Of a stretch of DNA of 64,000 nucleotides, positions 3,941 through 54,147 are shown in pieces (within the stretch, counting starts at the first letter, position 1; every line of letters starts with the position of its first letter). The notes beneath the pieces were generated by a model, which worked only from the letters and a program-made list of their open reading frames with translations, did not search any database and was not told the origin of the DNA. The stretch lies in IMG/VR virus record IMGVR_UViG_3300045988_160639; one strand, written 5' to 3'. This DNA comes from a virus. The position numbers and the translations under genes are program-made.

Positions 3941-4347
3941 AGCATTAAATTTTATAATTTATATTAAAGGTTTGTATCAGAAAGCATACCAATCTGGAAC
4001 TCTCTGCCCTTTGTAACATCAGTTGCACTATATTTTTATTCAACGAGGGACGCTAATCCTCGCCAGTTTTAAACTTCTTTATATTTCTATAAAGGATAGA
4101 CTATATCTTTACCCATTAAGGGCAAGCACCACTTCCATACGCTTGTATGTACTTCCTTACGGAATAGTCGTTGAACTTTACCTTTCGGTCTTAGCTGCTG
4201 ATTATCCATTGTTAAAGTGTTTAGGTTTTAACCTTGCACTATCTATTCAATTTTTTCTACTTTCGTAACATTCACGCTTATACCCTTTAAGGTATTACGT
4301 TGTAGTTTGAATAGTTTTAAGAGTTCCCAGCAATTCAATGCTTATTT
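3941..4347 (-). ncRNA. Candidate structured non-coding RNA downstream of the capsid gene
   Basis: About 400 nt with no credible ORF in an otherwise tightly packed late operon, and locally higher GC. On the minus strand there are several short hairpins capped by GNRA tetraloops (ACC-GAAA-GGT, TTCC-GUAA-GGAA) plus other stems (CGAGG...CCTCG, TACC...GGTA). Confidence 0.3.
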
Positions 4348-5442
4348 TTACGCACATTTTTCAATATACGGAGTCTGCAAAATGTTAAACTCAATATCCA
4401 TACGAGTGAGTACATGACCGGTTGTTATATCATTACCACTGAATGTAGTCAGTCCACCTCTTGTCCAAGACTTAATAGGAGAACCGTACTGACCACCAGT
4501 AGGAACAACAATGGCAAGACCTGCATCGAGCATAGTATCAAAATTATCGCCAGTAGCATTGAGAGAAGAATAATCATAAGGATTTGTCATCTCTGCAAGA
4601 ATAGTTCCGTTATATGCACCGAGAATACCCTTTGTGCGAATATCTCTAAGGTCTTCTGCGGAAATGCCCTGTGTATAACCATATCTGGAAGAATTATATA
4701 CAAATTCAGAGTTATAACCTGCCCAAGGAGTAAACTGCTGAAGAAGTGCATAATCACCAATTACGGTAGCACCTGTGCCAAGTCTTCTTACCTTCTTGAG
4801 AACATCATCAACACCAGCCTTAGTGAGACCTGCACCCTCAAAGAAATACTTTACAGGAGTAGCGTTCTTAACAGCATTGTAAGCATTAGTTACAATAGCC
4901 TTCTTCATCTTATTGATAATATCAATTCTTACCTGATTCTTGCCTTCGTTCTCCTTAGACATATCACCAAGCATAAGTCTGCGGTAATCGGTAGCCCAAC
5001 CGCCAGAAATAGTCTTTGTGCCTACTGCATACTTGTCACCCGTAATTGCAGGGAAAATTACATCAGCGTTAAGTGCCTGCTCACGAGACTTGTCACCAAT
5101 AAACTTCCAAGACTCTACCTCAATAGACTCGTCATATCCAAGAGCTTCAAAATCACCGAATACAGCAAGATTCTGAATTTCTGCGGTAAGAAGAGGCTCA
5201 ACAGAATACTTTCTAATAGTGTTAAGTTCTGCAAGAGACTTAGGATCACCATTAGCAATACCTGCACCAAGTTCCTTGAGTCTATTTACAACAGCGTCTG
5301 TCTTCTTACCGTATTTAGACGTGTCCTTACCATCTGTAAGGGCGGAGAAAATTTCTACAATAGGAGAATTAGGCTTAATCTCATTTGTAAGAGTGACATC
5401 AGAATCACGTCTTACGTTGTTCATTTCAAAAGTCATATCCAT
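4348..5442 (-). CDS. Major capsid protein (HK97-fold type inferred)
   Basis: 364-aa ORF in the canonical portal-scaffold-capsid order. Codon usage looks highly expressed. Confidence 0.6.
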   Translation of the reverse strand: MDMTFEMNNVRRDSDVTLTNEIKPNSPIVEIFSALTDGKDTSKYGKKTDAVVNRLKELGAGIANGDPKSLAELNTIRKYSVEPLLTAEIQNLAVFGDFEALGYDESIEVESWKFIGDKSREQALNADVIFPAITGDKYAVGTKTISGGWATDYRRLMLGDMSKENEGKNQVRIDIINKMKKAIVTNAYNAVKNATPVKYFFEGAGLTKAGVDDVLKKVRRLGTGATVIGDYALLQQFTPWAGYNSEFVYNSSRYGYTQGISAEDLRDIRTKGILGAYNGTILAEMTNPYDYSSLNATGDNFDTMLDAGLAIVVPTGGQYGSPIKSWTRGGLTTFSGNDITTGHVLTRMDIEFNILQTPYIEKCA

Positions 5443-11804: not shown

Positions 11805-12820
11805 TCATCCTTCAAATCCAAACATATCATTTATGACATCTTCATCTTTGTTCTTTAAGTATCCTTGGGTTGTTCCCACGTCTGTATGATGTGCCACTAC
11901 TCGGACGTGATCTAAATCAAACACCTTATTAGTTCCATCTGGATTTTTAAGCCTTTCATCCTGACCGGTAGATAAGCACTCCAAACGAGAATGTCTTATA
12001 CTATGTGGAAATATATTAACTTCTTCACCACGAATTTCAGATAATATCTTTGAGCATTTTAATATACGGTTGTAAAGGGCATCTTTGGTCACTTCCACCT
12101 TATTCTTACCGTGTCCGTTAATCCAAAGGCTTTCAATATCATCATTTCCACGTTCTTCAAGATATTGACGTATTAACTCTTTAGTGTCGTTTAGATAAAC
12201 AAGAGGAAATGTCTTGCCACGCTTTCCTTTAACAATATTTGTCTTGTTTCCATCAAGTAATCCTGCTTTCTTAACTTGGTATATTTCATTTCTTCTACCA
12301 GCAGAATCATAACTTAAACTCCATAAAACTGCTGTCTGTAAATCACCCATTTCAACAAGTTTATCTCTAACTGCTATAAATTCTTTAAACGTAAAGAAAA
12401 ATCGTCATCATTAGTTTTAACTCGTTCCCTCGGAAGACCTTTTACCTTTTTAGCATAATTGACATCATAATTGTATTCATCGTCCTCTTCGCAGTAAGTA
12501 AGCATACTGTTTACGGTCGCTTTAAGCCTATTTACTCTATTTGCCGACATATTACAATCTTCAGAAAGCCAAATACTCATATTTCTGAAATCTTTCTTGC
12601 TCATTTCAAGAATAGATTTATTTTTATGATGAAGTAATACATAAATTAAAATAAACCTTCCATCTTGAAAATAAGCTTCAATCGTAGAATTAGCTTTCTT
12701 TTGCTGTCTATATTCAGCGAGAAAATCTTCAAGTATAGCTTTATTTTCGGGATTTACTTGCTCCCAAAGTTCAGGAGTATAAACCCTATTATAAACACCT
12801 CTACTACGAGCCAATTTCAT
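11805..12820 (-). pseudogene. Tyrosine recombinase/integrase split by a -1 frameshift at a T5 run
   Basis: ORF 12374-12820 is the SAM-like N-terminal domain. ORF 11805-12350 carries AGRRNEI (Arg), HSIRHSR (HxxR) and HHTDVGTTQGYL (His...Tyr). The -1 frame reads continuously (FTFKEFIAVRDKLVEMGDLQ) across the A5 run at 12397-12401 (plus strand). Confidence 0.65.
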
Positions 12821-20828: not shown

Positions 20829-21578
20829 TCATACATTTGTATTCTTAATTCTTTCTTTAGCAATCTCAAAATATGTATTATCTAATTTAATCCCGATAAA
20901 TTTACGATTAAGATTCTTACAAGCTACTCCCGTTGAACCTGAACCCATTGTAAAATCCAATATAATGTCACTCTTATTGCTAAATGTCTTTATTAACTCT
21001 TCCAATAATGCAACTGGCTTTTGAGTTGGATGAAAATTAGATTTTAAACAATCTCTCTGAAACTTCCACACCTGAGTAGGATATCTCCACCCAGTATCTA
21101 TGTATTCTGTAACCTTATGTTCTTTATTGTCCGACAACTTACCGATAACACCATCTTTTACTTTGTTTGAGCGTGGCTTACCCTCATATTTAATCATCTG
21201 TGGATTATATGTAGGTTGTTTTTCATAAAATATAGATATAGTTTCTACCGTTTTACCAATTCTTCTTTTAACCTGCTGAATATTAGTTAATCTTTCCTTT
21301 TCCCAATAAATATCATATTTATAATCTTTTAGATTAGACATTCTCAACTCAGAGGCAAAAGGCTCTTGCCCAAATAATATAATCGGACTTGTGGATTTGG
21401 CTATTCTTTTCAGCTGCTTCCACATATTATCAAAAGGAATTATAATATCCCAAGAACAGGACGTAGAACCATAAGGCAAATCAGTAATTACACAATCAAT
21501 GCTTTTATTAGGGATATTCTTCATAAGTTCAAGACAGTCACCACACCAAAGAGTAACATCATTCATACTTGTCACCAT
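20829..21578 (-). CDS. DNA methyltransferase (beta-class N6-adenine/N4-cytosine type)
   Basis: DLPYG catalytic motif at the N-terminus, then HPTQKP and FTMGSGSTG (AdoMet motif I) toward the C-terminus. This is the beta-class motif order. Confidence 0.8.
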   Translation of the reverse strand: MVTSMNDVTLWCGDCLELMKNIPNKSIDCVITDLPYGSTSCSWDIIIPFDNMWKQLKRIAKSTSPIILFGQEPFASELRMSNLKDYKYDIYWEKERLTNIQQVKRRIGKTVETISIFYEKQPTYNPQMIKYEGKPRSNKVKDGVIGKLSDNKEHKVTEYIDTGWRYPTQVWKFQRDCLKSNFHPTQKPVALLEELIKTFSNKSDIILDFTMGSGSTGVACKNLNRKFIGIKLDNTYFEIAKERIKNTNV

Positions 21579-28761: not shown

Positions 28762-29028
28762 CATAAAGTGCTTTATCTGCACAAATTAAAAAAATTTTGG
28801 GAGGTTAAAACAATTTTGAATTTGGTGCGTATGCGGTAGCAGAACATTAAACACGTCAGGGCGTGTATAAAAAGGCATTTAGGCTCTGAGCGTTTACGGG
28901 GATTTTTCCCCGTAAGGTATGCACAATAAGCATAACAGCACGGTTAAACGGCTGTAAGCCGTTAGTCTCTCGCAATAGTGGGAGACAGCTAAATAAATAA
29001 AACGTGTATTTGATAGGAGGGTTTTAAA

Positions 29029-29322: not shown

Positions 29323-29428
29323 TTGCAGAGCATTGCAGGCGGTGCAATTCCGCTTGTAATAATGCAGCTTAACGGAAACGTTAAAAGGTTGCAAGCCCTT
29401 AAAAATTGAATTGATGGAGGTTTTAAAT

Positions 29429-32996: not shown

Positions 32997-33110
32997 AAAG
33001 TTGTCCGAGCAGCTATAAACAGTCCATTAAGCTCGGAGCGTTTGGCAGTCTGAGTAAGGCTGTCAAGGTTGGAAAAATCAAAGTAGGAAAGAATATGGAG
33101 GAAATAAATT

Positions 33111-34241: not shown

Positions 34242-34808
34242 ATGAACGAATATGAAACGTTACATATAGAATTTCATGCAGCTGGAGAATGTGATTCTTT
34301 AAATATCAATTTTAAAAATTTAGGTTGGTTTTATGATACAAAAACTGGCATCGCAATATATAAGAAATATATTGAAGCTGATTTAAAGGTAGGTACAATA
34401 TATGATTTTACATATGAAAACGAGGATGATTTAGTTATATACACTTATGTGGTTGTAAAGAAGGAAAATAATATCTATTATTTGGCTGAATATTATCATA
34501 ATAAATTTTATAAACCACAAGAAAATCATTTAGGAGAAAAGTGGATTAAGTGTGATGTAGAAAAGAAATTTGATATTAATTTAGAGAATTTTGTTGTAGA
34601 AGTTACAGAAAAAGCACTTGATGGCGTGGAAATAACAGGTTATAATAAAGGAAAAATTGACGGAATAAAAGAACTTGTAAAAGAATTAAAACAACATTCT
34701 TGTTTTTATGATTTTATAAATTATATAAGTTTTGAAGCTGTTGACATAGAAGCTATAGACGAAATAGCAGAAACGATGATAAAGAAAATTCGAGGTGAAA
34801 ACAAATGA
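34242..34808 (+). CDS. Hypothetical protein
   Basis: 188-aa ORF with SD TAAGGAG. Confidence 0.65.
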   Translation: MNEYETLHIEFHAAGECDSLNINFKNLGWFYDTKTGIAIYKKYIEADLKVGTIYDFTYENEDDLVIYTYVVVKKENNIYYLAEYYHNKFYKPQENHLGEKWIKCDVEKKFDINLENFVVEVTEKALDGVEITGYNKGKIDGIKELVKELKQHSCFYDFINYISFEAVDIEAIDEIAETMIKKIRGENK

Positions 34809-35338
34809 CTGGAATAAAAAGATTTAGCGATATACCACAATTCACAAGAGACGGAGCGTGGGAATGCAACTTTGATATAGAAGGCATTGCCCGTTGGATA
34901 AAGCAAGAGCAGGAAGAATTAGGCTTACAGCTTAATCCTAAATTTCAGAGAGGACACGTCTGGACAGAACAACAGCAAATAGCATTTCTCGAATATTTCT
35001 TTCGTGGTGGAAAATCAGGGTTGGTATGCTATTTCAATAAACCCGATTGGAATATTCACGTTCCCGATGAAGCATATAATGAGTATGTTTGCGTTGACGG
35101 ATTACAACGAATTACAGCTTGTCTGAGGTTTGTCAATAACGAAATCCCTATCTTTGGACGTTATTATAAAGACTTCGAGGATAAACCAAGAATGAGACAT
35201 ACATTAAGGTTCAATGTCAATGATCTAAAAAACGAAAAGGAAGTTTTGCAATGGTATATTGATATGAACGCAGGTGGAACATCTCATACATCGGAAGAAA
35301 TTGAACGTGTAAAAAAGATGATTGAGGAACTGGAATAA
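34805..35338 (+). CDS. Short DUF262/ParB-like (Srx-fold) protein, paralog 1
   Basis: KFQRGHVWTEQQQ, CVDGLQRITACLRF and DMNAGGTSHTSEE, in the order typical of DUF262. Confidence 0.7.
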   Translation: MTGIKRFSDIPQFTRDGAWECNFDIEGIARWIKQEQEELGLQLNPKFQRGHVWTEQQQIAFLEYFFRGGKSGLVCYFNKPDWNIHVPDEAYNEYVCVDGLQRITACLRFVNNEIPIFGRYYKDFEDKPRMRHTLRFNVNDLKNEKEVLQWYIDMNAGGTSHTSEEIERVKKMIEELE

Positions 35339-35361
35339 TTTAATGAAAGGTGGGTTTTATT

Positions 35362-35805
35362 ATGTCAAATGAAAATAGAGTATATCAAATATCGTGTCCA
35401 AATTGCCATCACGAGTGGAGTTATAGCGGAAACTATTATTCTCAGAAAATAAAACAATTAGGACATGACATTGAAGAAATAAATAATCAAATTTCAAAAA
35501 ATAAAAAGCTTCCAGAATGCAAAAGAAATAAGGAGTGGGAAAAAAGTGCTATTGAAGCAAAAAATATAAAACTTAAACAGTTAAAAGAACTTAAAGATAT
35601 AAAATCTCAATATAATATTGAAATGAATATGAATATCTATGAATGGTTCAAACAGCTTGTTAAGGATGAAATTGGAGAAAAACGTTATAAAGAACTTATT
35701 GAACAAGCTGATAAAGAAGCAAGAGCATATAGTATAAATACTATTGCAAGAACAACATATTCAAGAAAGGACGGAAAGAATATTATTTCAGTAACTAAGA
35801 TATAA
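35362..35805 (+). CDS. Zn-ribbon plus coiled-coil protein
   Basis: CPNCHH zinc ribbon followed by a Lys/Glu-rich helical region. Start reset to MSNENR. Confidence 0.55.
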   Translation: MSNENRVYQISCPNCHHEWSYSGNYYSQKIKQLGHDIEEINNQISKNKKLPECKRNKEWEKSAIEAKNIKLKQLKELKDIKSQYNIEMNMNIYEWFKQLVKDEIGEKRYKELIEQADKEARAYSINTIARTTYSRKDGKNIISVTKI

Positions 35806-35926
35806 TAAAACGCAAGTTCTATGAATTTGCAAGTGAATAATAAAATAGAACTTTCCTCTTGACAAATTGGGAAAAGCGTGATAATATTAAATTATCATTA
35901 CTTTTAATTTTGTCAGGAGGATTTTT

Positions 35927-36940
35927 ATGGATAAATTTAAAATGTACCAAAAAGGTATCAGCATTAAATCCCTTTACAATATGTACTATGAAGATGTTCC
36001 CGAGGTTGACTTCACGGACGATATGCAGCGTGGAGAGGTGTGGAGTAATACCCGAAAATCTCTCTATATTCATTCAATCTTACTGAAGATTACCGATGCA
36101 CAGTCCCCATTTATTGCAGGTGTAAGGGAACTTCCTAACGGAAATACTCTCCTGAAAATCTTTGACGGAAAGCAAAGAGGAACAACCATAATCCATTATA
36201 TAGACGGAGATTTTGCCCTCACGGGACTGACAAACGAGCCTGATATATACCTCAACGGAGAACCCGTTAAGCTTCAGGGCAAGCGTTTTAAGCAGCTTCC
36301 TCCCAAACTCCAAAGCTGGATACTTGATACAACTCTGAACGTTTCTATAATAGAAAATGCTACACCCGAGCAGGAATCCCTTATTTTTCGCAGACTTAAT
36401 AACGGAAAAACGGTTAGTAAGTTCGATATCGCCCGTTCCTATAAGCAGGGAATGGAAGATATCAAGGAGCTTACCAGCCACGAGCTGTTTAATGTAATGC
36501 TCACCTCAACGGAAAGAAAAGCCCTTAAACAGCAGGAAATCATAATCAGATCGTGGATAGCTCTCTTTGAGGAAGAACCAAACCTCACTCCAGCTCATGT
36601 CAACGAGGTTATGAAAGTCCTCAGTATTGATGCAGACGAAAGGGAACAGCTTAAGTCTTCATATGATTTTATATTTGAAGCATATAAGCTTATGGCAATA
36701 GAGAAGGAAAATTCAGATATCATCAAACTGATGTTTAAACCAACTCATCTTATAGGATATCTGCCTTATCTGGAAAAATTTGATACCCCAGATCAGTTTG
36801 CAAAATGGACTGGAAAATTCTTTGGTAATATGCCCGAAGAATATGCTTCTCTCGTCAGAGAACATACCACAAGCCCCACAAGCATAAAAGCAAGAAGAAA
36901 TATTATAGAAAAATCTATCAATGAATTTCTTGGAAAATAA
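35927..36940 (+). CDS. DUF262/ParB-like protein, paralog 2
   Basis: DMQRGEVWSNTRK, IFDGKQRGTTIIHY and FRRLNNGKTVSKFD. Confidence 0.75.
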   Translation: MDKFKMYQKGISIKSLYNMYYEDVPEVDFTDDMQRGEVWSNTRKSLYIHSILLKITDAQSPFIAGVRELPNGNTLLKIFDGKQRGTTIIHYIDGDFALTGLTNEPDIYLNGEPVKLQGKRFKQLPPKLQSWILDTTLNVSIIENATPEQESLIFRRLNNGKTVSKFDIARSYKQGMEDIKELTSHELFNVMLTSTERKALKQQEIIIRSWIALFEEEPNLTPAHVNEVMKVLSIDADEREQLKSSYDFIFEAYKLMAIEKENSDIIKLMFKPTHLIGYLPYLEKFDTPDQFAKWTGKFFGNMPEEYASLVREHTTSPTSIKARRNIIEKSINEFLGK

Positions 36941-36969
36941 TTTTTCACAATAATAAAACCGTCACTCAA

Positions 36970-37518
36970 TTAAGGGTGACGGTTATTTTTTATAAATTCG
37001 GAAAATTGGTTTAAGACCGTTTGTTCATAAGAGGATGTGAAGAAATCATTCCGGTGATATAGTAATTCAAGTCGTCTGGAACGAATTTTAGCTGCCCTTT
37101 CAGGAATGTGACACATATTTATGAGGTCTTCTATTTGATGAATATTACAAGCCCATAAAACGCACGCAGGAGCGAGAATATTTATTCCAAAATAATCTGC
37201 CTCGGTTTCATCTAAAGTTGGAATAATTATATGCCCAAACTCGTGAGCAATAATGAATCTTTGTTGATAAAACGGTTCAGAATCATCAACAATAATATAG
37301 TTTTTACTGGATTTGTTTAGGGTTGTAAAAGATTTCCCCAACTCTAAAGGCTTTAGCTTGGCAAAATTATTGCTTGGAATATTGGAATTTTTTATAATGT
37401 CGGTGTTATAATTTACACATAAGGGTATAAAATCTAAAGGTAAAGTTTTTATTTTGCAATCAATGAGGCATTGACAAGCTCTGTCTCTTGCACGTACATA
37501 ATCTTTATACGGAGAAAT
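36970..37518 (-). CDS. ImmA/IrrE-family zinc metallopeptidase, with no canonical start for its N-terminal domain
   Basis: HEFGH motif. The frame stays open and ImmA-like (ARDRACQCLIDCKIKTLPLDFIPL...) up to 37545, but the only ATG/GTG/TTG is the TTG at 37341. A candidate ATT start at 37518 follows AAGGGTGA. Confidence 0.6.
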   Translation of the reverse strand: MSPYKDYVRARDRACQCLIDCKIKTLPLDFIPLCVNYNTDIIKNSNIPSNNFAKLKPLELGKSFTTLNKSSKNYIIVDDSEPFYQQRFIIAHEFGHIIIPTLDETEADYFGINILAPACVLWACNIHQIEDLINMCHIPERAAKIRSRRLELLYHRNDFFTSSYEQTVLNQFSEFIKNNRHP

Positions 37519-37522
37519 AAAA

Positions 37523-37555
37523 TCACCCTTAGTTAGAATTTGTAACTAAGGGTGA
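37523..37555 (-). terminator. Rho-independent terminator after the LexA-like gene
   Basis: Perfect 13-bp stem TCACCCTTAGTTA / TAACTAAGGGTGA, followed on the minus strand by TTTTATTT. Confidence 0.65.
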
Positions 37556-37572
37556 AATATGTTTGGAAATAA

Positions 37573-38295
37573 TTATTTAGAAAAATCATTATTGGAAATA
37601 GGAAGAGAACTTAAAGACTGAATGTCATTTGATGTAATCTTTCCAATAGTATTGTCAGGTGTCTTTGCAGCTTCCTGAATGATCTCATCAGAATTTTCAT
37701 CATATGAGCCAACAACTTTTCCAAATACGGAAAATTTATCGGTATCGTAAACTTTAATAACTGGATAATCTGAATTTATTGAGTGTAAGCCATCATGTTC
37801 ATATATTTTGAAATAAGGACTACCATTTAAAACAGCAATAACTTCATCACCATATTTGACCTCAGTAGTTTGTTTTACCCAAACGATGCTTCCGTGTGGA
37901 TAATCTGGAGACATTGAATCGCCGTTAATACGTATTCCGCAGTCAGCGTTTGACGGAATAATATCGTCTGGAAATTCTATTTCTTCAAAAGCATTATTTA
38001 AATAAAAATTAGTTGATATTCCTGCTCCAGCTGCAACTATAGCAATAGGAAATAATTTTTTATTACAAGATGTGCAAGTTATTTTGGAAATATCAGGGAT
38101 ATAACTGAGAATGTCTGATATATCACATTTAAAATAATCGCACAACTTATTCAAGTTTTCAACAGAATAAGTTTTAGATTTGCCAGTTTCCATATCAGAA
38201 ATCGTTTGTTTTCTAATTTTAATGCTTTTGGATAATTCTTCTTGAGATAATTCATTATGGTTAAATCTCAGTGTTTTTAAATTACATTTAATCAT
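37573..38295 (-). CDS. LexA/CI-like repressor (XRE HTH plus S24 peptidase domain)
   Basis: N-terminal HTH (LSQEELSKSIKIRKQTISDMETGK). C-terminal GDSMSP motif and a downstream Lys region typical of S24 autopeptidases. Confidence 0.8.
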   Translation of the reverse strand: MIKCNLKTLRFNHNELSQEELSKSIKIRKQTISDMETGKSKTYSVENLNKLCDYFKCDISDILSYIPDISKITCTSCNKKLFPIAIVAAGAGISTNFYLNNAFEEIEFPDDIIPSNADCGIRINGDSMSPDYPHGSIVWVKQTTEVKYGDEVIAVLNGSPYFKIYEHDGLHSINSDYPVIKVYDTDKFSVFGKVVGSYDENSDEIIQEAAKTPDNTIGKITSNDIQSLSSLPISNNDFSK

Positions 38296-38365
38296 AGTGT
38301 TACACCTCTTGTATAAAATGGATAAATTGTTATGGATAACTTTATATATTATTTATCCCAAAATA

Positions 38366-38407
38366 CACGAAATTCGTATTGACATTATGCGAATTTCGTG
38401 ATATACT
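38366..38407 (+). promoter_or_regulatory. Rightward promoter TTGACA-17-TATACT bracketed by an 11-bp inverted-repeat operator
   Basis: CACGAAATTCG (38366-38376) and CGAATTTCGTG (38390-38400) flank the -35 and cover the spacer. -35 is at 38379-38384 and -10 at 38402-38407. Confidence 0.6.
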
Positions 38408-38452
38408 TAATACATACCAAAGAGATGCAGAGATGCAAATCCTTAGTATTAC

Positions 38453-38481
38453 ATAATAACATATTTCAATAAAAAAGTCAA
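38453..38481 (-). promoter_or_regulatory. Leftward promoter TTGACT-17-TATTAT (TG-extended) for the LexA-like gene
   Basis: The reverse complement reads TTGACT tttttattgaaatatgt TATTAT. It faces the rightward promoter about 45 bp away. Confidence 0.6.
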
Positions 38482-38668
38482 GTAGTAAGAAAGGAAGACA
38501 ACGATGTGATATTATAATTTACATAATAATAGGAAATCGCACTAAATCGACTTGATTTATTATCTGCATTGCAGTATAATAGATATAGTAGGTAATCTGA
38601 TACATAATCAAAAGCAAAAGCTCCCACTACCCATAACGTGAGAGCCACCCATACTAACGCTCTGGGTG

Positions 38669-38827
38669 TTAATCTATCGGTCTAATATCGACCTTGAATC
38701 CATTCTTTCCGAGACGAATGGAGAAACGATGTTTCTTGTCATTCAGGCACATTTTCACGATAATTACGAGCGTTATTGGAATAACGATTGTGCCGAGTAT
38801 GGACAGCAACGCAATCAAAACCTCTAT
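38669..38827 (-). CDS. Type-I-toxin-like small membrane protein (about 52 aa, non-AUG start inferred)
   Basis: IEVLIALLSILGTIVIPITLVIIVKMCLNDKKHRFSIRLGKNGFKVDIRPID. GAGGAGGGG SD lies 8 nt before an ATA codon (alternative TTG at 38818). An upstream CCCCTTTCCCC tract could pair with the SD. Confidence 0.4.
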   Translation of the reverse strand: MEVLIALLSILGTIVIPITLVIIVKMCLNDKKHRFSIRLGKNGFKVDIRPID

Positions 38828-38909
38828 ACAAATCCCCTCCTCTGTAGGTAGTCAAACTGCCGTAAGTAATACGGGGAAAAGGGGTATATGGGTCTTCCAA
38901 CTACTTTTG

Positions 38910-38938
38910 ATTATACCAGATTATCTACAAAAAAGCAA
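38910..38938 (-). promoter_or_regulatory. Leftward promoter TTGCTT-17-TATAAT with TG extension, upstream of the small membrane ORF
   Basis: The reverse complement reads TTGCTT ttttgtagataatctgg TATAAT. Confidence 0.5.
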
Positions 38939-38941
38939 GAA

Positions 38942-38985
38942 AATAGTGCGGTTTGATAGAAAAATTGTCAGACCGCACTATTTTT
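38942..38985. terminator. Bidirectional rho-independent terminator
   Basis: 11-bp stem AATAGTGCGGT / ACCGCACTATT, with an A-run upstream and a T-run downstream. Confidence 0.65.
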
Positions 38986-38991
38986 ATTGTA

Positions 38992-39222
38992 TTATTTGTT
39001 AATTTTGTCAAGATTTGATTTATCAGGTATATACTCCATTAAATCCGAGGGCTGGCAATTAAATAAAGCACACAACTTGTTTATGGTCTTAGCATCTAAA
39101 CCTTTTGTTCCATTCTTTAATCCATAATAAGTTGCTTGTCCAATAAGACCTGTTTCTCGAATTTTTGTTGCCGTATAACCATGTTCTGTTAAAAGTTTAA
39201 AAAGTTTATCATAATTAAGCAT
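38992..39222 (-). CDS. Cro/CI-type HTH regulator
   Basis: 76 aa. GQATYYGLKNGTKGLDAKTINKLCALFNCQPSDLMEY is typical of XRE-family HTH proteins. Confidence 0.75.
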   Translation of the reverse strand: MLNYDKLFKLLTEHGYTATKIRETGLIGQATYYGLKNGTKGLDAKTINKLCALFNCQPSDLMEYIPDKSNLDKINK

Positions 39223-39237
39223 TTAATACACCTCACT

Positions 39238-39320
39238 CAAATGAGTGAAAAATCACCATAAAAATTCACTTAATTTTGTGAAATGTGTGTATTGAAATTC
39301 ACTTAATTAAGTGATATACT
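39238..39320 (+). promoter_or_regulatory. Three operator-like palindromes plus rightward promoter TTGAAA-17-TATACT
   Basis: AATGAGTGAAAAATCACC, TTCACTTAATTTTGTGAA, and the perfect palindrome TCACTTAATTAAGTGA overlapping the spacer. -35 is at 39292-39297 and -10 at 39315-39320. Confidence 0.6.
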
Positions 39321-39360
39321 TATATCAAGGTCAAATCATAAAGGATTCAAACCTTAGTCT

Positions 39361-39421
39361 TATATAATAACATATGTTCTGAGATTTGTCAAGCACCTTT
39401 CAGAAAATATGTTATTATATA
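39361..39421 (-). promoter_or_regulatory. Leftward promoter TTGACA-17-TATTAT embedded in a perfect 15-bp inverted repeat
   Basis: The arms are TATATAATAACATAT (39361-39375) and ATATGTTATTATATA (39407-39421). The minus-strand -35 is at 39387-39392 and the -10 at 39364-39369. Confidence 0.6.
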
Positions 39422-39452
39422 AGTAAGTAAAAATTCAAAGGAGGATATACAT

Positions 39453-40811
39453 ATGGCAAAGACAGCAAAGAAAAAAGATTACAATTCTATTGAAATCAAT
39501 GGAACTGCTTATACCATTGCAGAGCGTGTGAGAGAAGAATCTGATGTGCGGATGATTCCTTATTCAGTAAAAATGTATGTTGAAGAAGTTGACGATGGAG
39601 AGATTTGTCGTGATCCACTTATACAGAGAACGGATGACCAGTGGACAAAAAAGCAGAAGTCTAAGTTGATTGAAGCTGTTTTACATAATAGACCTATCGG
39701 AAGTATGGCACTTGCCAAGGGTAGAGCTGAGAGTAAAAGTTATTCAATCACATCTCTCGTAGATGGATTGCAGAGAACCACAACACTTGTAGACTTTTAT
39801 CACGATAAATTTGCTTTGGATAAAAGAGCATTACCTGTTGTGTGTAGATGTGTTGACGAAAATGGCAATGAACAAAAAGTTGAAATTGATATTGCAGGGA
39901 AAAAATATTCTCAGCTTTCTGATGCGATAAAGACATTCTTTAATAAATATAGTCTTACCACATATATGCACGAGGGCTTTTCTGATGAAGAATTGGACGA
40001 CATTGTATTCTGTATGAATAACGGAAAGTCTCCAAATGCTTATCAGAAAATACGTTTTGCTCTCGGTTCAACAATTATGCGTTCTTTGCAGCCAATTTGT
40101 GATAGCACACTTTGGGAAGATGTTAATGGTTGCAAGGCAAAAAATGACAGTATCCTTTGTTGTATAGTAAGAACTCTTATGATGATGACATTTTACAATT
40201 ATAATAATCTTGGCTCTGCAACGATGACTAAGTTTGTAGATGATTTTGATGATTATGTAAAAGCATCGGATATCGCTAATCTATCTATACTCGTAGAGGA
40301 ACTTGCGGAAATTAAGATGAATCTGTCGGAAGAAGAATCTACAAGATTAGATTCTGTGACTATTCCACATTATATAATGAGTCTTAATTCGTTTAAGAGA
40401 AAGAACAAAACAGCCACTGATTACAGAAACTTTCTCAATAAATTCTGGAGCAGTGATAATTTTGAACTGCTTACATCAAGCTGTGAATCTAATGGTAGCG
40501 GAAGTTCTCTGTATTCTGCTGAAATGGTAGAAGACAGACAGTATGCTATAGATGATTATATGGACGAATATCTTGATGAGAATGAGGGTGAAATAAATGG
40601 CGAAGAAAACGGCACTGACGAAAGCGGAGCAACAGGAAATACTAACAACGGAGATAATGGAACTGAAACAGACATTATCTCAGACGTGTTTGACACTGAA
40701 ATTGTGTCAGAGGATAGTGGAACTGGCAACTCGTCAAGTGGAATTGAATCCGAAGTCAATGAAGATGGAAACGTCCTACAGGGAAGTGGGCAAAGCTTTA
40801 GGTCAGCCTGA
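39453..40811 (+). CDS. DUF262/ParB-like protein, paralog 3, with a long acidic low-complexity tail
   Basis: LIQRTDDQWTKKQK, LVDGLQRTTTLVDF and MNNGKSPNAYQ. The C-terminal ~90 aa is rich in D/E/G/N/S/T. Confidence 0.75.
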   Translation: MAKTAKKKDYNSIEINGTAYTIAERVREESDVRMIPYSVKMYVEEVDDGEICRDPLIQRTDDQWTKKQKSKLIEAVLHNRPIGSMALAKGRAESKSYSITSLVDGLQRTTTLVDFYHDKFALDKRALPVVCRCVDENGNEQKVEIDIAGKKYSQLSDAIKTFFNKYSLTTYMHEGFSDEELDDIVFCMNNGKSPNAYQKIRFALGSTIMRSLQPICDSTLWEDVNGCKAKNDSILCCIVRTLMMMTFYNYNNLGSATMTKFVDDFDDYVKASDIANLSILVEELAEIKMNLSEEESTRLDSVTIPHYIMSLNSFKRKNKTATDYRNFLNKFWSSDNFELLTSSCESNGSGSSLYSAEMVEDRQYAIDDYMDEYLDENEGEINGEENGTDESGATGNTNNGDNGTETDIISDVFDTEIVSEDSGTGNSSSGIESEVNEDGNVLQGSGQSFRSA

Positions 40812-41328
40812 CAGAACTGCAAGAGATTGTAAATGTGTCTTATCTTGTTATGATAAGCTTATCAAAAGTGAAATAAATGACAAGTGCGTCAATAAAGTTT
40901 TATCGGAAAATTCAACATCTCAAGCTACAAAAGTAATTTCCGCTTTAAATTATTGCAGTGACGAAGATAAAACACTTTATCTCGACAACGAAATAAGTTC
41001 AACGGGACTTTATAAACGCAAAGGGAATGTTGTTATTGTCGGTACTAAAGCAACAGATACAATGTTGGATAGAGCCAAGCGAATGAAGGACGATTCAGAA
41101 GAATCCCTTACGTTTGCAATGATAACAAGTATGTTCAAATCAGAAACTAAAAATTACATCGAATCTCTTAAAGATTATATTGAAATGGTGGATAGAGTTT
41201 CTGATAAGCAATATACCAAAAAAGAAGCCATAGCTGATATAACACTTACATTAAGTACAGTGGTAAATACAATAACTTCCTTAAAAGAAGCAATTATAGA
41301 AAAGTCTAATATAATAATGGAGGAATAA
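40597..41328 (+). CDS. HTH-like protein whose first ~215 nt overlap the previous gene out of frame
   Basis: ATG is preceded by GAGGGTGA. The N-terminus MAKKTALTKAEQQEIL...SYREVGKALGQPDRTARDC looks protein-like with an HTH. Confidence 0.5.
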   Translation: MAKKTALTKAEQQEILTTEIMELKQTLSQTCLTLKLCQRIVELATRQVELNPKSMKMETSYREVGKALGQPDRTARDCKCVLSCYDKLIKSEINDKCVNKVLSENSTSQATKVISALNYCSDEDKTLYLDNEISSTGLYKRKGNVVIVGTKATDTMLDRAKRMKDDSEESLTFAMITSMFKSETKNYIESLKDYIEMVDRVSDKQYTKKEAIADITLTLSTVVNTITSLKEAIIEKSNIIMEE

Positions 41329-41332
41329 AATT

Positions 41333-42115
41333 ATGGAATTTTCAGCACAGCCCAGTTGGACAACAAGAACGATCAACTCATCTCAGCTTAAAAGCAAACA
41401 GCCATATTAGCGTAAAATTGATATGAAATTTATTGCTAAATGTGTTAAAGATTTCAATCTTAATAAGGTTGACCCTGTTCACGTTTCTTATCGAGACGGA
41501 AAGTATTACGTAATTGATGGACAGCATACAGTCATTATTCTCGAAGCTGTTAACGAAAATAAGCCTGTGGATATTCAGTGTATTGTACATAAGGGAATGA
41601 CCTATACTGATGAAGCTGATTATTATGTTGACCAGTATGAAAAGAAACATCGACATACATTTAATGAAATGACACTTGCTTCTTATGAAGCCGGCAGAGA
41701 ACTTCCTTGTGAGCTTGCATTAAAAGTTTCTCGTGTTGGTGGTAGATTACCTTATGATAAAAAGACCACTACCGGAATGAGAATCAATGCAGTTAAAAAG
41801 GTGGAAATGCTATATAAGAAGGATTCTGATGATACTATTCTTGCCATAAAGTGTCTTGTTGAAGCGTATAACGGAAGAGAATCCAGTTTGCAGGGCGATA
41901 TCATAGCAGGAACAACAGAGTTTCTCAAACTTTACGGAAATAATATCGTCACATCAAGACTTGTCAATGCACTTGCAAAATACACTCCTCAGATGCTCAC
42001 AAATACAGCCAAGAACCTCAAGATGTCCTATCCTATTAACTGGACGGAAACTCTTAGAGACAAGTATAACGAGGTATCCAAGCGTGGTAAGATAAAGCCG
42101 ATATACGGAATTTGA
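41333..42115 (+). CDS. ParB-like (DGQH-type) protein, paralog 4, with an in-frame TAG at codon 26
   Basis: ATG 41333 has a strong SD (ATGGAGGAA). The same frame continues through the TAG at 41408-41410 into the tracked ORF (41423-42115), which has no SD of its own. VIDGQHTVIILEA motif. Confidence 0.55.
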
Positions 42116-42155
42116 TTATATAAATATAATACTTCTAAATGAAAGGATAATCACT

Positions 42156-42998
42156 ATGAACGCAGCTATAGCTTATAATTCAACAACAGCTAATATCATT
42201 GATATGTCGGGCAGAAAAAGCAGACGTAAGATATCTCAGAGACAAGTTGTTGTTACTGAGGTGGAAGCTCCTACTAATCATTCTGCCGATGCGTTTATGT
42301 GCGAAAATGATATCAACGCTGTTATTCGTCAGTGTTTCAAAGAAAGAGCATATCATAAAATGGTAATGTTCATCTTCGGAATAAACACAGGCTATCGCTG
42401 TGGTGATATTCTTTCGTTTAAAGTAAAAGATGTAACAGATGAAAACGGAAACATTCTTGATGTTAAGTATATTTCTGAGCAGAAAACAGGCAAGGCAAGA
42501 CCTGTGTATTTTAATAGGGCTGTAAAAACGGCTCTTAAATATCTTATTGATCGTAAGGGATTAACTTCTAAAAATTATCTTTTTAGAGGTGATGGAAACC
42601 GTAGAGCATATTTCGATAAATTTATCTATGATAAATGCGGAGAAATTACAGATGTAATTACGACAGGGGAGAGGTACGATGAAAATGGCAATGAAAGAGA
42701 AATTGCTCCTATGACCGTATCGTCAGTGAGCAGATGGCTTAAAACAATAACACAAAAACTTAACATAGTGGGACATTATAGTTCTCACGCTATGCGAAAA
42801 ACTTTCTGTGAGTTTATCTCACGGAATTGGAATGATAATAGGAATGTAATGGTTGCTTGTGTGGCTGTAGCTCACGCCGATGTTGATACAACAATGAATC
42901 ATTATATGACGGTAAATCCATTGAAACTTCGTCAAAAATGGCTTGACCTTAATCTTGGACTGGAAGAATTTGAAAAGCTGTCTGGATATAAAATTTGA
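42156..42998 (+). CDS. Tyrosine recombinase
   Basis: NTGYRCGDIL (Arg), HYSSHAMRKTF (HxxR) and AHADVDTTMNHY (His...Tyr). Confidence 0.75.
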   Translation: MNAAIAYNSTTANIIDMSGRKSRRKISQRQVVVTEVEAPTNHSADAFMCENDINAVIRQCFKERAYHKMVMFIFGINTGYRCGDILSFKVKDVTDENGNILDVKYISEQKTGKARPVYFNRAVKTALKYLIDRKGLTSKNYLFRGDGNRRAYFDKFIYDKCGEITDVITTGERYDENGNEREIAPMTVSSVSRWLKTITQKLNIVGHYSSHAMRKTFCEFISRNWNDNRNVMVACVAVAHADVDTTMNHYMTVNPLKLRQKWLDLNLGLEEFEKLSGYKI

Positions 42999-43012
42999 AA
43001 GGAATGATATAA

Positions 43013-43567
43013 ATGACCGTTAAAGAATTTAGAGCATTGGCTCGGAAAAGTGGAAAAATAAGAAAGATACCGGTATCAATGATAAGAATGATAGAGAAGG
43101 TTCATTATAATAGCGACCTCTCCCAGATACCTAGTCTTAACAAAGACAAAAATAAACTGTTGATAATATTACATGATAATAAGGACTGTACTTATAACCT
43201 TATCACGGGTTGGAAAGACTATACTATTGCAATCAGAGATGGCATAAAGACTATAAATGCTGTTTTGGTAGATTCTGTCACCAGAGATAAATTTTATGCT
43301 GAATTGTCGGATAGTACGGAATGGGTAACTCTTCCTGAAATAATAATTCCGTCCTCATTTAAGAAAAGTCCACCAAAAGAAGAAAAGTTACATAACACAA
43401 TTATGAATATGAAAGAAGCATTGAGAACTAATACTATTTCAGAATATCTTGATACAAAGCCAATAACGATATCCAAAAATAACACACTTGTAGATGGATA
43501 TACAAGATATTTGGCTCTCAAATTTATAAGATATCAGGGTAAATTTCCAGTAATAAGAAAGGATTGA
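43013..43567 (+). CDS. ParB N-terminal-domain-like protein, paralog 5 (two tandem halves)
   Basis: YNLITGWKDYTIAIRDGIKTINAVLV, then a second half ITISKNNTLVDGYTRYLALKFIRYQGKFPVI. Confidence 0.55.
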   Translation: MTVKEFRALARKSGKIRKIPVSMIRMIEKVHYNSDLSQIPSLNKDKNKLLIILHDNKDCTYNLITGWKDYTIAIRDGIKTINAVLVDSVTRDKFYAELSDSTEWVTLPEIIIPSSFKKSPPKEEKLHNTIMNMKEALRTNTISEYLDTKPITISKNNTLVDGYTRYLALKFIRYQGKFPVIRKD

Positions 43568-45386: not shown

Positions 45387-45812
45387 ATGATTGCTAATAG
45401 CTCAACTGATTTTAGACATTATGATAATAAGTATCATTCAACTGTGATGGAATATCACCGTGGCGATATTGTCTGGGTCGATTTTGGAAATACGGTCGGC
45501 TCAGAACAAGGTGATATCCGTCCAGCCGTAATAATACAAAATGAAGTAGGAAATAAACACTCACCATGCCTTATAGTGGCTATCATGACCAGTAAGGAGA
45601 AAAAGCCAATGGTAACGCACGTAAGTATAAATCCATCTGTAGAGACCGGATTAACAAAGCCTACTACTGTAATGACAGAACAGATAAGAACTATTGATAA
45701 GAGCCGAGTTCTGAGCTGGGCAGGAAAGCTTGGTGAAAGAATGATGACTTGTATTGATAGAGCCATCGCTGCAAGCTTTGGTCTGGAAAATAATTCTGCG
45801 TATTCTGTATAA
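45387..45812 (+). CDS. mazF: MazF/PemK-family endoribonuclease toxin
   Basis: GDIVWVDFGNTVGSEQGDIRPAVIIQNEVGNKHSPCLIVAIMTS...TVMTEQIRTIDKSR. Confidence 0.8.
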   Translation: MIANSSTDFRHYDNKYHSTVMEYHRGDIVWVDFGNTVGSEQGDIRPAVIIQNEVGNKHSPCLIVAIMTSKEKKPMVTHVSINPSVETGLTKPTTVMTEQIRTIDKSRVLSWAGKLGERMMTCIDRAIAASFGLENNSAYSV

Positions 45813-45877: not shown

Positions 45878-46849
45878 ATGGTACCATACTTTGAAGAATA
45901 TTGTCAGCATATTATTGAAAAGAATCCCAGTTTTGGTAATTACGCACTGAGGATATCGTGTTTAAACAAAGTAGAGAAAAATATATTTGATATGTCAGCC
46001 GAGGAAATTGCTGATGCTGTAGAAGCTGATAAAAAGAAAATTACTACTTTAAATGCTTTATACGGCGTTTTGTGTGACTATTACAGATGGGTAAATAAGA
46101 CTTATGATTTATCCATAAAGGATAGTTTTTACGAAATCAATAGACTTAAAAGTATAGTATCCGATATAAAAACCGAAAGCGGTAAAGATGAATACTTTAC
46201 TACTTTTTCAGAATTGAAACAGGCTTTAACTCAGGCAGAAGAGGATTATCTTATTCTGCAAGAATCTGAATTATCCGAAAAAATGTATGAAAGTTTAGTT
46301 GTGCGACAAAAGAAATTCAATGTATTTAATGTATTTCTTTGGGAGCAACTTACAACAGATGATATGATTTCTATTACATTGTCTGATGCAAGGAATATAA
46401 TCAGTACCAAACAGCTGACCGTCAACGGAAAGTCTATTGAACTTTCAGATGAGGAAATTCAGTTTATTGATGACCTGTATTCGGAAATATTAGAATTGCA
46501 AGCACAGGATGAGCAAAATAGCGTAAAAAGACAGTATAAAAGAAAAACAAAGAATTGGACATATGATAATTTATTTAATTCCGAAAAGAAATCAAGTTTC
46601 GTAAATTTAAAGTGGAACGCAATGGGGGCATTTATACAGGATGTGCGACTGGAAGCTCCCAATGTTAAAAAAGCAGGTATGTTCAATAAAATGTATCAGT
46701 ATGAAAGAAAAAATGATTATGTCTTTTCTGGAGACATGAATAGTGCAGAAACATATGCTCGGACATTCAATACTTCAGTGACCAAAGCATATCGTATGGT
46801 GAGCGAATACAATAAGTTCAGACAGAGTATTGAGAATGCAGAAAATTAA
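45878..46849 (+). CDS. Hypothetical protein
   Basis: 323-aa ORF with SD GAAAGGA. No catalytic motif recognised. Confidence 0.6.
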   Translation: MVPYFEEYCQHIIEKNPSFGNYALRISCLNKVEKNIFDMSAEEIADAVEADKKKITTLNALYGVLCDYYRWVNKTYDLSIKDSFYEINRLKSIVSDIKTESGKDEYFTTFSELKQALTQAEEDYLILQESELSEKMYESLVVRQKKFNVFNVFLWEQLTTDDMISITLSDARNIISTKQLTVNGKSIELSDEEIQFIDDLYSEILELQAQDEQNSVKRQYKRKTKNWTYDNLFNSEKKSSFVNLKWNAMGAFIQDVRLEAPNVKKAGMFNKMYQYERKNDYVFSGDMNSAETYARTFNTSVTKAYRMVSEYNKFRQSIENAEN

Positions 46850-47005: not shown

Positions 47006-47080
47006 TTGGGATTAGTATAATGAGAAGTACATCAGCCTTTGACACTGATAGTTTCGGGGCAGAGCCGAAATCCCAAACCA
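47006..47080 (+). tRNA. tRNA-Gln (anticodon UUG), non-canonical T-loop
   Basis: TTGGGAT TA GTAT AATGAGAA GTAC A TCAGC CTTTGAC ACTGA TAGT TTCGG GGCAGAG CCGAA ATCCCAA A CCA. Confidence 0.65.
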
Positions 47081-47150: not shown

Positions 47151-47224
47151 GCACCATTAGTTCAATAGTAGAACAAACGACTTTTAATCGTTAAACATCG
47201 GGGCAGAACCGATATGGTGTACCA
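47151..47224 (+). tRNA. tRNA-Lys (anticodon UUU), non-canonical T-loop
   Basis: GCACCAT TA GTTC AATAGTA GAAC A AACGA CTTTTAA TCGTT AAAC ATCGG GGCAGAA CCGAT ATGGTGT A CCA. Confidence 0.7.
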
Positions 47225-53593: not shown

Positions 53594-53673
53594 TAATACA
53601 ATTAAACAGATAACAAAAAAGGGCGGTGGGTGGATAGCCTACCGTCTGTTTTGTCTATTCAGGAAGTGATTAT

Positions 53674-54147
53674 ATAAGCAGACCTGCACACTGCAAATGT
53701 TGCAATAAAGAAATCCGAGGAGAAGAAATATTCAAACATAATAACAAGTCATATTGCAAGCAATGTTATGAAATAATACACTCTGAAAGTGAAGATTATA
53801 AAACGCTTATATCTATGATTTGTGAGTATTTTGAATGTGATGAACCCACCGGAATGATAATGACACAGATAAAAAATTACAAAAAAGACTATGATTTAAG
53901 TTACGCTGCTATTGGATATACACTTTGGTATATCAAAAACATTATCGGAGATAAATTCAATATAAAATACGGCATCTTTCAAGTTAAAAATGAATATAAA
54001 AACGCTGAAAAATATTTTAAGGAACAGCAGTTGATCAGTGAAAAGGCTTATAATTTCGAAGAAAAAGAACGGATAGTAAAATTAAAGCCTAAATCAAAGA
54101 AAAATAATTACCTTATAGATTTAGATAAATTTGTAGAAGGGGAGTGA
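53674..54147 (+). CDS. Zn-ribbon replication-associated protein, probable ATA start
   Basis: The tracked ORF starts at 53815, but the frame is open from 53638 and encodes CKCCNKE...YCKQCYE upstream. The only start-like codon with an SD (AGGAAGTGA) is the ATA at 53674. Confidence 0.5.
   Translation: MSRPAHCKCCNKEIRGEEIFKHNNKSYCKQCYEIIHSESEDYKTLISMICEYFECDEPTGMIMTQIKNYKKDYDLSYAAIGYTLWYIKNIIGDKFNIKYGIFQVKNEYKNAEKYFKEQQLISEKAYNFEEKERIVKLKPKSKKNNYLIDLDKFVEGE

Follow-up and report, generated by a model that had tools for sequence, protein, structure and literature searches.

ParB/sulfiredoxin-superfamily genes around the immunity switch of a large SPbeta-like gut phage

Five ParB-superfamily proteins from at least four families

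The DNA analysed here is a stretch of 64,000 nucleotides (nt) from the IMG/VR virus record IMGVR_UViG_3300045988_160639, hereafter the window. It contains five genes within 9 kb, designated P1 to P5, which an initial annotation made from the sequence alone had assigned to the ParB/sulfiredoxin (Srx) superfamily. The five genes span at least two transcription units, with leftward immunity genes between them, and are accompanied by a gene designated gX and by a tyrosine recombinase gene designated Yrec. The features of the locus are as follows:

34805-35338 (+): P1, 177 amino acids (aa), DUF262 domain only, with QRGHVW and DGLQR (GmrSD_N, E 1.5e-12; phrog_1583, E 4e-27)
35350-35805 (+): Zn-ribbon/coiled-coil protein between P1 and P2, given for context only
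35927-36940 (+): P2, 337 aa, NsnA-type, i.e. ParB-DUF262 plus a helical ParBDB-like domain (GmrSD_N, E 9e-9)
36970-37341 (-): ImmA-like M78 metalloprotease (Peptidase_M78, E 7e-6), start probably further upstream
37573-38295 (-): CI/LexA-like repressor (Peptidase_S24, E 4e-18; HTH_26, E 1e-14)
38992-39222 (-): Cro/CI-type helix-turn-helix (HTH) repressor, 76 aa (precomputed Pfam HTH_26), divergent from the P3 operon
39266-39423 (no strand): switch region with face-to-face promoters, operator palindrome and inverted repeat
39453-40811 (+): P3, 452 aa, NsnA/DndB-type, i.e. ParB-DUF262 plus an all-helical domain (GmrSD_N, E 2.7e-14)
40597-41328 (+): gX, 243 aa, possible HTH read by eye
41333-42115 (+): P4, DUF6551 ParB-like protein (PHROG and Pfam), TAG-interrupted in this strain
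42156-42998 (+): Yrec, 280 aa, catalytic domain only (Phage_integrase, E 3.5e-14, residues 49-254)
43013-43567 (+): P5, 184 aa, two tandem ParB/Srx-like halves (AlphaFold model and PDB fold search)
45387-45812 (+): MazF/PemK toxin (PHROG MazF-like, E 3e-29; precomputed Pfam PemK)
45878-46849 (+): g45878, conserved 323-aa protein in the downstream part of the P3 operon

The superfamily membership was borne out by Pfam for P1 to P4 and by structure together with a ParB_N homolog for P5, and the motifs quoted in the initial annotation were all seen in the translations. Pfam searches, AlphaFold modeling and fold searches, which it had proposed as a check, were carried out and placed P1, P2 and P3 in DUF262, P4 in DUF6551 and P5 in the ParB/Srx fold. 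These families (DUF262/NsnA-type, DUF6551 and the ParB fold) are already known. Against the GmrSD_N/DUF262 model (PF03235; gathering cut-off 33.2 bits), P1, P2 and P3 scored 48.5, 36.2 and 54.2 bits, respectively, and neither P4 nor P5 gave a match. The translations of P1 to P3 contain the DUF262 motifs I (QRxxxW), II (DGxQR) and III (FxxxN), and within the P3 family (21 homologs) QR..W, DG.QR and NNGK are invariant. The PADLOC profile of NsnA, the sensor of the Menshen system, matched P2 (E 1.2e-27, profile positions 43-283 of 385) as well as P3 (E 1.6e-26, nearly full length). The best PDB match of the P3 AlphaFold model was BrxU, followed by ParB and SspE with weak scores (E 0.03-0.05), and the model also resembles dozens of viral nuclease-less DUF262 proteins among the 50 BFVD matches listed. 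Beyond residue 175 the model consists of helices only, hence it lacks a beta-beta-alpha nuclease finger; the C-terminus is an acidic, disordered tail of about 75 aa, the model being disordered from residue 379. When the PDB was searched with a sequence profile of the P3 family, the only match was a low-complexity artefact.

P5 had no Pfam match of its own. However, its AlphaFold model (predicted local distance difference test score, pLDDT, 84.5) matched exclusively ParB/Srx-fold structures in the PDB with a probability of ~1 and E ~1e-4; these were ParB, Noc, KorB, sulfiredoxin, PadC, SbnI and pNOB8 ParB-N, with a root-mean-square deviation of 2.3 Å over 84 columns. Distant P5 homologs match Pfam ParB_N (PF02195) in their N-terminal half, and a 35%-identical homolog lies above the cut-off for this family (33.8 vs 26.3 bits). 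The order of secondary-structure elements in the model is consistent with two minimal ParB domains, i.e. a tandem mini-ParB, with GWKDY in the N half at the place where ParB has GERR, and DGYTRY in the C half. A 222-aa protein that follows the recombinase in one related locus (L022) was considered as a P5 homolog and is not one.

P4 matched DUF6551 (PF20188) with 100.5 bits (E 1.4e-28, cut-off 26.8) and a PHROG family named 'ParB-like partition protein' (E 1e-8), and its best PDB profile match, a weak one, was sulfiredoxin (E 0.24). In the DGQH motif of this family, G63, Q64 and H65 are invariant. While the family assignment of the interval 41333-42115 stood, its description as a continuous open reading frame (ORF) did not, owing to an in-frame TAG at 41408-41410; the uninterrupted P4 ORF of this strain spans 41423-42115, resuming at the ATG at 41423. 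Nine related contigs have CAG at this position, and the TAG replaces the Gln of motif I (Q26), a residue that does not vary among the homologs from Staphylococcus, Mycobacterium and gut phages, so that this lineage has a truncated or crippled P4. Recoding of TAG to Gln as a general feature of the phage was considered and dismissed, as there is no amber-suppressor tRNA and the late genes are without in-frame TAG. Among 46 confident ORF stops, TAG occurs once, TAA 27 times and TGA 18 times, yet TAG makes up 16% of stop trinucleotides; P4 is the only conserved gene with an internal TAG. P4 homologs are confined to phages, including the integrating temperate Staphylococcus phage EW, and none was present among the 72,556 plasmid records of PLSDB.

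The term 'paralogs', as used in the initial annotation, proved too strong. In an all-vs-all BLAST comparison, only P2 and P3 were related to one another (23% identity, E 5e-6), and by this measure the five proteins fall into at least four divergent families. Because pairwise similarity is otherwise lacking, the genes cannot have arisen by recent duplication in an arms race.

Immunity switch, gene linkage and inheritance

In the switch region, two promoters face each other. The rightward one (39292-39320, TTGAAA-17-TATACT) has an operator palindrome in its spacer, the leftward one is at 39392-39364 (TTGACA-17-TATTAT), and the leader of P3 contains a 24-nt inverted repeat (39359-39423). A near-duplicate face-to-face pair was found at 38379-38407 (+) and 38481-38453 (-). 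The spacer palindromes of the two rightward promoters differ from each other, and the two leftward promoters, both of the form TTGACx-17-TATTAT, presumably serve the CI/S24 gene (38481-38453) and the 76-aa HTH gene (39392-39364). Judging from other face-to-face switches, this arrangement would make the P3 operon a rightward operon of the lytic type. P2 is the last gene of the rightward operon upstream and converges on the immunity genes.

A stretch of approximately 570 nt (38410-38985, +), located 3' of the strong promoter at 38379-38407 (TTGACA-17-TATACT), is poor in ORFs, has no Rfam match and is closed, shortly before the 3' end of the leftward HTH gene, by a 20-bp terminator hairpin (38939-38985); the stretch may specify a regulatory RNA of the switch, either non-coding or antisense. 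In addition, the ImmA-like gene, taken here as 36973-37572 (-), and a Zn-ribbon gene at 53638-54147 (+) have 60-77 apparently coding codons before the first ATG, GTG or TTG. These extra codons begin directly after an in-frame TAG, and the two genes may use ATT or ATA starts.

The phage is a large temperate SPbeta-like gut phage of roughly 120-135 kb. The GC content is ~33% across the window, the genes from 0.6 to 25 kb are on the minus strand and those from 26 kb on are on the plus strand. According to PHROG, Pfam and precomputed annotation, synteny with SPbeta includes, on the minus strand, portal, terminase, YonG/YonD/YonB-like structural genes, a YonJ-like exonuclease and a YonO-type single-subunit RNA polymerase, and on the plus strand YorF followed by Sak4, DnaB, primase, RecJ, DNA polymerase and a RecD-like helicase. 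The window sequence was also found on many human-gut metagenome contigs of 115-135 kb, and some relatives are embedded in contigs of 280-333 kb, which exceeds the size of the phage. Among isolated phages, a megablast search with the 10 kb region yielded no close relative and a tblastn search with P3 only two weak matches. A single-sequence P3 query of GTDB genomes likewise gave no close relative; an alignment-based P3 scan of the same genomes revealed distant relatives, the nearest being metagenome-assembled genomes (MAGs) of Oscillospiraceae and other Clostridia.

We compared approximately 45 related loci, labeled L001, L021 and so on, which were searched with a local hidden Markov model (HMM) for each family. 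The initial annotation had treated the five genes as an array of paralogs and had called for a check of whether the co-localized set is conserved; the comparison showed that they are not one co-inherited unit and are inherited separately, in four groups. The first group is a conserved core, P3-gX-P4, at the head of the rightward operon at the face-to-face switch. P3 is always the first gene of this operon and is divergent from a repressor-type HTH or S24 gene, and gX and P4 follow it in most relatives, down to 36-45% identity in the Oscillospiraceae/Clostridia MAGs; L021 has P3 and lacks both P4 and P5. P2 forms the second group, on the opposite flank of the immunity genes. Genes of its type lie beyond the immunity genes in L001-L007, L021, L022, L029, L030, L050 and L055, and in the last six of these the P2 homologs, with 39-74% identity, occupy the same place relative to the repressor. 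The third group is P5 with Yrec: in L035 and L036, distant homologs replace P3 and P4 and the Yrec-P5 pair is still 97% identical. P1, the fourth, is carried on a strain-specific indel cassette of ~2 kb, is confined to near-identical strains and is absent from L004 and L006-L019. The Zn-ribbon/coiled-coil gene next to it, which is represented by two ORFs in L001, had no significant family match in Pfam or PHROG.

The five genes are hence several modules of already catalogued phage protein families and not one new system. The initial annotation had offered two views of them, either all five as one multi-component, NTP-dependent DNA-clamping or nicking system, or a recent arms-race family of paralogs. 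There are indeed five superfamily members in 9 kb, and a sixth, small DUF6551-like ORF (115-142 aa) lies 3' of P5 at ~14.8-15.2 kb in L008, L011-L013 and L015-L019 (E ~1e-12 to the P4 family HMM; absent from the window), so that ParB-fold genes do accumulate here. However, with at least two transcription units, separate inheritance and a single detectable similarity among the five, both views are largely refuted by the comparative data and we find them barely credible.

Within the conserved core, P3 and gX share 215 nt (40597-40811), in which the first 63 codons of gX are read in a different frame from the acidic tail of P3. The version of gX given by the gene callers has 180 aa instead of 243. 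The N-terminal 63 aa are kept in L029, where a TnpB insertion parts gX from P3, and an out-of-frame P3/gX overlap of 200-280 nt recurs in the distant relatives L030, L050, L055 and L056. This conservation of the overlap suggests overprinting. The product of gX had no family match, and a relationship to the partner proteins of phage EW and of the Mycobacterium prophage described below, or to YopM, YopN or YopO, was dismissed for lack of similarity. TnpB/IS605 OrfB-type insertions were located in L029 (8413-9633 and 14534-15724) and L030 (7683-8903), one of them being that between P3 and gX.

Yrec retains the catalytic residues R, K, HxxR, H and Y, which are conserved in all of its homologs, the distant ones included. 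An N-terminal SAM-like core-binding domain was not detected, the Pfam match beginning at residue 49, and NCBIfam classified the protein, weakly, as Xer-like. Pairs of the P5/Yrec type occur at three different genomic positions, with the two genes adjacent in the window family and in L050 and at most 0.55 kb apart in L029 and L030. Taken together, the missing core-binding domain and the recurrent linkage suggest that P5 may supply Yrec with DNA binding or control.

Absent partners and comparison with known systems

For the partner search, the 60 ORFs of at least 100 aa in the window were compared with Pfam and PADLOC, and the precomputed Pfam annotation of matching contigs was consulted; the results cover 25 of the 26 matched Pfam families and the best 25 of the 73 PADLOC families. 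The earlier statement that no nuclease, ParA or adjacent methylase accompanies the five genes holds within the 64 kb window. DUF1524 and HNH were found neither in P1 to P5 nor in their neighbors or the Pfam families covered, and ParA, CbiA and AAA_31 were absent from the window. There was likewise no NsnB (AAA_15/DUF3696) or NsnC among the Pfam and PADLOC families covered, and no dndACDE or sspABCD modification gene among the Pfam families. The sole methyltransferase of the window, an N6_N4 MTase at 20829-21578 (-), is ~13 kb away in another transcription unit. Repeat searches for a parS-like palindrome cluster yielded only promoter and operator elements. Among the candidates, a 27-nt motif at 38456, 39367 and 50707 (5 matches vs 0.37 expected) proved to be the -35/-10 region of leftward sigma-70-type promoters rather than a ParB site, and the parS-like palindrome ATAACATATGTTAT was not enriched (25 matches vs 15.2 +/- 4 expected). 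Without DUF1524/HNH, ParA or a parS-like cluster in the window, the locus is not an ordinary GmrSD or ParABS cassette, in agreement with the initial annotation.

One could still envisage maintenance of a plasmid-prophage, with P4 and P5 as centromere-binding proteins, Yrec as an Xer-like resolvase and MazF as an addiction toxin. Many of the contigs of 115-135 kb are free-standing, the recombinase is short and Xer-like (weakly, as stated), a toxin gene shares the operon and the canonical integrase of the window is split by a frameshift. However, neither ParA nor another partition NTPase is encoded in the 64 kb and a parS-like repeat cluster is missing; P4 homologs occur in none of the 72,556 plasmid records, yet one is present in the integrating phage EW; the relatives in contigs of 280-333 kb suggest integration, although concatemer assembly could also account for them; and P4 is broken in this strain. 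We therefore view maintenance as very unlikely.

In the Menshen system, the sensor NsnA consists of ParB-DUF262 and a helical DNA-binding domain, ParBDB, an architecture common to DndB, GmrSD and SspE (Li et al. 2025 NAR, PMC12065111). P2 and P3 resemble NsnA in that they match most of its profile and have QR..W, DGxQR and F/xxxN followed by an all-helical domain. Unlike NsnA, they are encoded by a phage, in the early operon beside its lysogeny switch, without NsnB or NsnC, and P3 has an additional acidic tail that is overprinted on the following gene. A similar comparison holds for GmrSD, BrxU and SspE: BrxU gave the best PDB match of the P3 model and SspE a weak one (E 0.05), but there is no DUF1524/HNH domain in the P proteins or in neighboring genes.

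These likenesses bear on the possibility that the nuclease-less P1, P2 and P3 are anti-defence decoys, mimicking the sensor of host Menshen, type IV restriction or Dnd/Ssp systems and thereby titrating the transducer or effector of the host or occupying modified DNA, to the benefit of the incoming phage. P2 and P3 score highest against NsnA (E 1e-27 and 2e-26). A long operon of small early genes ends with P1 and P2, at a location typical of accessory and anti-defence functions, and the P1 cassette varies between strains; a near-identical relative has a homolog of Gad1 (anti-Gabija) just past the end of the window; and P3 and P4 are swapped in L035 and L036 amid a near-identical background, as diversifying pressure predicts. 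In contrast to fast-turnover anti-defence genes, however, the P3-gX-P4 core is fixed beside the switch down to 36% identity, and a passive decoy would not need strictly conserved nucleotide-binding motifs. Furthermore, Menshen and GmrSD are not known to occur in the presumed hosts. Overall, we consider a decoy function plausible in outline but unlikely.

A MazF/PemK gene and a gene for a protein of ~300 aa lie 3' of P3 in the relatives whose loci extend that far. This arrangement would be compatible with defence or superinfection exclusion, in which P3, with gX and P4, senses foreign or modified DNA and releases the co-operonic MazF, as in a Menshen system lacking NsnB; RNases are the majority of Menshen effectors. 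The minimal order in L021 is P3, a 235-aa protein, PemK and a 289-aa protein, and the repressor of this locus is adjoined by a PBECR2/3 RNase gene. On the other hand, neither an NsnB-type ABC ATPase nor NsnC was seen in the window, the lytic-type promoter driving the operon suggests repression in the lysogen at the time when defence is needed, and in most genomes several genes separate MazF from P3. For these reasons, we regard an exclusion function as quite improbable. The protein g45878 was also examined as an MrpR-like integrase fold, for which there was no sequence evidence.

DndB is described in PMC12065111 and PMC12704722 as an ATP-responsive repressor of the dnd operon and a stand-alone protein with a ParB-superfamily and a helical DNA-binding domain. 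This architecture is shared by P2 and P3, but the locus has no dnd genes, and P1 to P3 match DUF262/NsnA models and not DndB models. In SPbeta, the sro operon has YopQ (SroE) as its second repressor; this protein takes part in lysogeny management, and its gene is transcribed together with that of YopR (SroF), a repressor of integrase fold. For YopQ, matches were obtained to Pfam DndB (E 7e-16) and to the DGQHR domain (E 5e-10). The SPbeta system resembles the present one in having a ParB-superfamily (DndB/DUF262) plus helical protein of ~450 aa near a protein of tyrosine-recombinase fold, and in its location, with late genes on one side and yor-type replication genes on the other. It differs in that Yrec keeps its catalytic residues and in that this phage adds a CI/LexA-type repressor. 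No orthologs of SroE or SroF were identified, as evidenced by the lack of significant similarity between P3 and YopQ, g45878 and YopR, or Yrec and YopP or YopR, and by the absence of MrpR Pfam domains from the window. The likeness is limited to architecture and genome position; YopQ and YopR nonetheless provide a precedent for the pairing of a ParB-superfamily protein with a recombinase-fold protein near lysogeny control. No arbitrium genes were noticed, although no search aimed at them was made.

KorB (RK2), BisD (ICEclc), HerB/YfjB (F plasmid) and Noc are orphan ParB-fold regulators that act as nucleotide-gated DNA clamps and regulate transcription. Like the proteins studied here, they have a ParB fold without ParA and are encoded by mobile elements, some being expressed early, and the model of P5 matches KorB and Noc. 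Unlike them, P5 consists of two minimal ParB domains with no HTH, whereas the KorB group combines a canonical ParB_N with GERR and an HTH in one chain, and P1 to P4 belong to the DUF262 and DUF6551 branches. For P4, the closest parallels in gene order are in other temperate phages. Staphylococcus phage EW has the order cro, ParB_N gene and DUF6551 gene (ORF013 and ORF017); the Mycobacterium prophage prophiGD11-1 has, in the same place, an HTH-annotated gene followed by a DUF6551 gene (gp14 and gp15); and in an Agathobacter phage a gene with a ParB-like motif, seen by eye only, precedes a DUF6551 gene. In all of these, a P4-homologous DUF6551 gene lies directly downstream of the cro-side of the switch, but neither P3 nor gX has homology to the partner proteins. 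EW and the Agathobacter phage, the latter by its motif, are unrelated temperate phages with a ParB-family gene pair at this place. A recent survey (PMC12704722) reports that prophages and plasmids are enriched in orphan ParB-fold proteins, and that in vitro CTP or ATP is bound by phage DUF6551 proteins, and ATP and GTP by those of the DndB-like kind.

Possible roles in early phage development

From the folds, motifs, gene order, conservation and absence of partners described above, we infer, with a probability of roughly 0.4, that P1 to P5 are orphan DNA-binding proteins, probably gated by nucleotide, which belong to the immunity and early region and serve phage development there as regulators or accessory factors. 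In this tentative scheme, P2, P3 and P4 would bind nucleotide through their conserved QR, DGxQR and N motifs, the nucleotide would gate their binding to or clamping of phage DNA, and the proteins would thereby regulate early development or the lysis-lysogeny decision. The small HTH repressor would control the face-to-face switch, with P3, gX and P4 as the first rightward transcripts, and P5 would contribute DNA binding or synapsis control to Yrec. Precedents for such regulators are DndB, KorB, BisD, HerB and SPbeta YopQ/SroE, the last of which is DndB-like and needed for lysogeny. A more specific and doubtful version would make P3-gX-P4 a hitherto unrecognized controller, gated by nucleotide, of the lysis-lysogeny decision or of early development, a functional analog of SroE in a large group of SPbeta-like Clostridia phages, and P5 a new kind of DNA-binding accessory subunit for tyrosine recombinases without a core-binding domain.

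Several observations weigh against the regulatory reading. No binding sites were found, the sole repeated motif being that of the leftward promoters. Homology of P3 and YopQ beyond the superfamily was not detected by BLAST or hhalign, and YopQ is not among the 50 BFVD structural matches listed for P3, although its inclusion in BFVD is not established. The lineage with the P4 nonsense codon was recovered from many samples, which suggests that P4 is dispensable or tolerates the loss of motif I. The P5-like genes of L047-L049 have no recognizable adjoining recombinase. Since a classical CI/LexA-type repressor and ImmA are present, a second, sro-like repression would be unneeded a priori, and for a rightward operon of the lytic type, early lytic functions are a better fit than the maintenance of lysogeny.

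A number of further features of the phage were recorded. The long rightward operon of small early genes contains three ribozymes:

28851-28922, 32999-33073 and 29324-29400 (+): two pistol ribozymes (67.5 and 55.6 bits) and one twister-P5 ribozyme (39.6 bits)

A group I intron at 4077-4397 (-), which matched the full-length Rfam model with 69.3 bits, is situated in the structural region, where it coincides with or adjoins the 3' end of the ORF 4348-5442 (-). A second tyrosine recombinase, at 11805-12820 (-), is split by a frameshift into an ORF for the core-binding domain (12374-12820) and a catalytic ORF (11805-12350) and may be a canonical integrase that has been inactivated; L023 has an intact and unrelated integrase of 342 aa in this position. 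Two tRNA-like genes at 47006-47077 and 47151-47221 (+), with anticodons reading UUG (Gln) and UUU (Lys), were matched by Rfam and overlooked by ARAGORN, and their T-arms are atypical. The Gad1 (anti-Gabija) family gene is at 17822-18838 in L025, ~0.7-1.7 kb past the right end of the window, in the order RecD-like helicase, Gad1-family gene, DNA ligase and RNA ligase.

The locus reveals neither a new defence system nor a new partition system. What appear to be undescribed in the searchable literature are the switch-flanking arrangement, the P3/gX overprinting and the association of a mini-ParB with a recombinase, the last hinting that a mini-ParB may work together with a tyrosine recombinase of minimal size. 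Prophages commonly encode orphan ParB-fold proteins and DUF262 proteins without a nuclease, hardly any of which has a known role. Rather than being random cargo, proteins of this kind are a fixed part of the regions that flank the lysis-lysogeny switch in one widespread group of large gut phages, and the placement of DUF6551 recurs in Staphylococcus and Mycobacterium phages. The locus thus offers a concrete and testable setting for the role that nucleotide-gated ParB-like switches may have in phage development.

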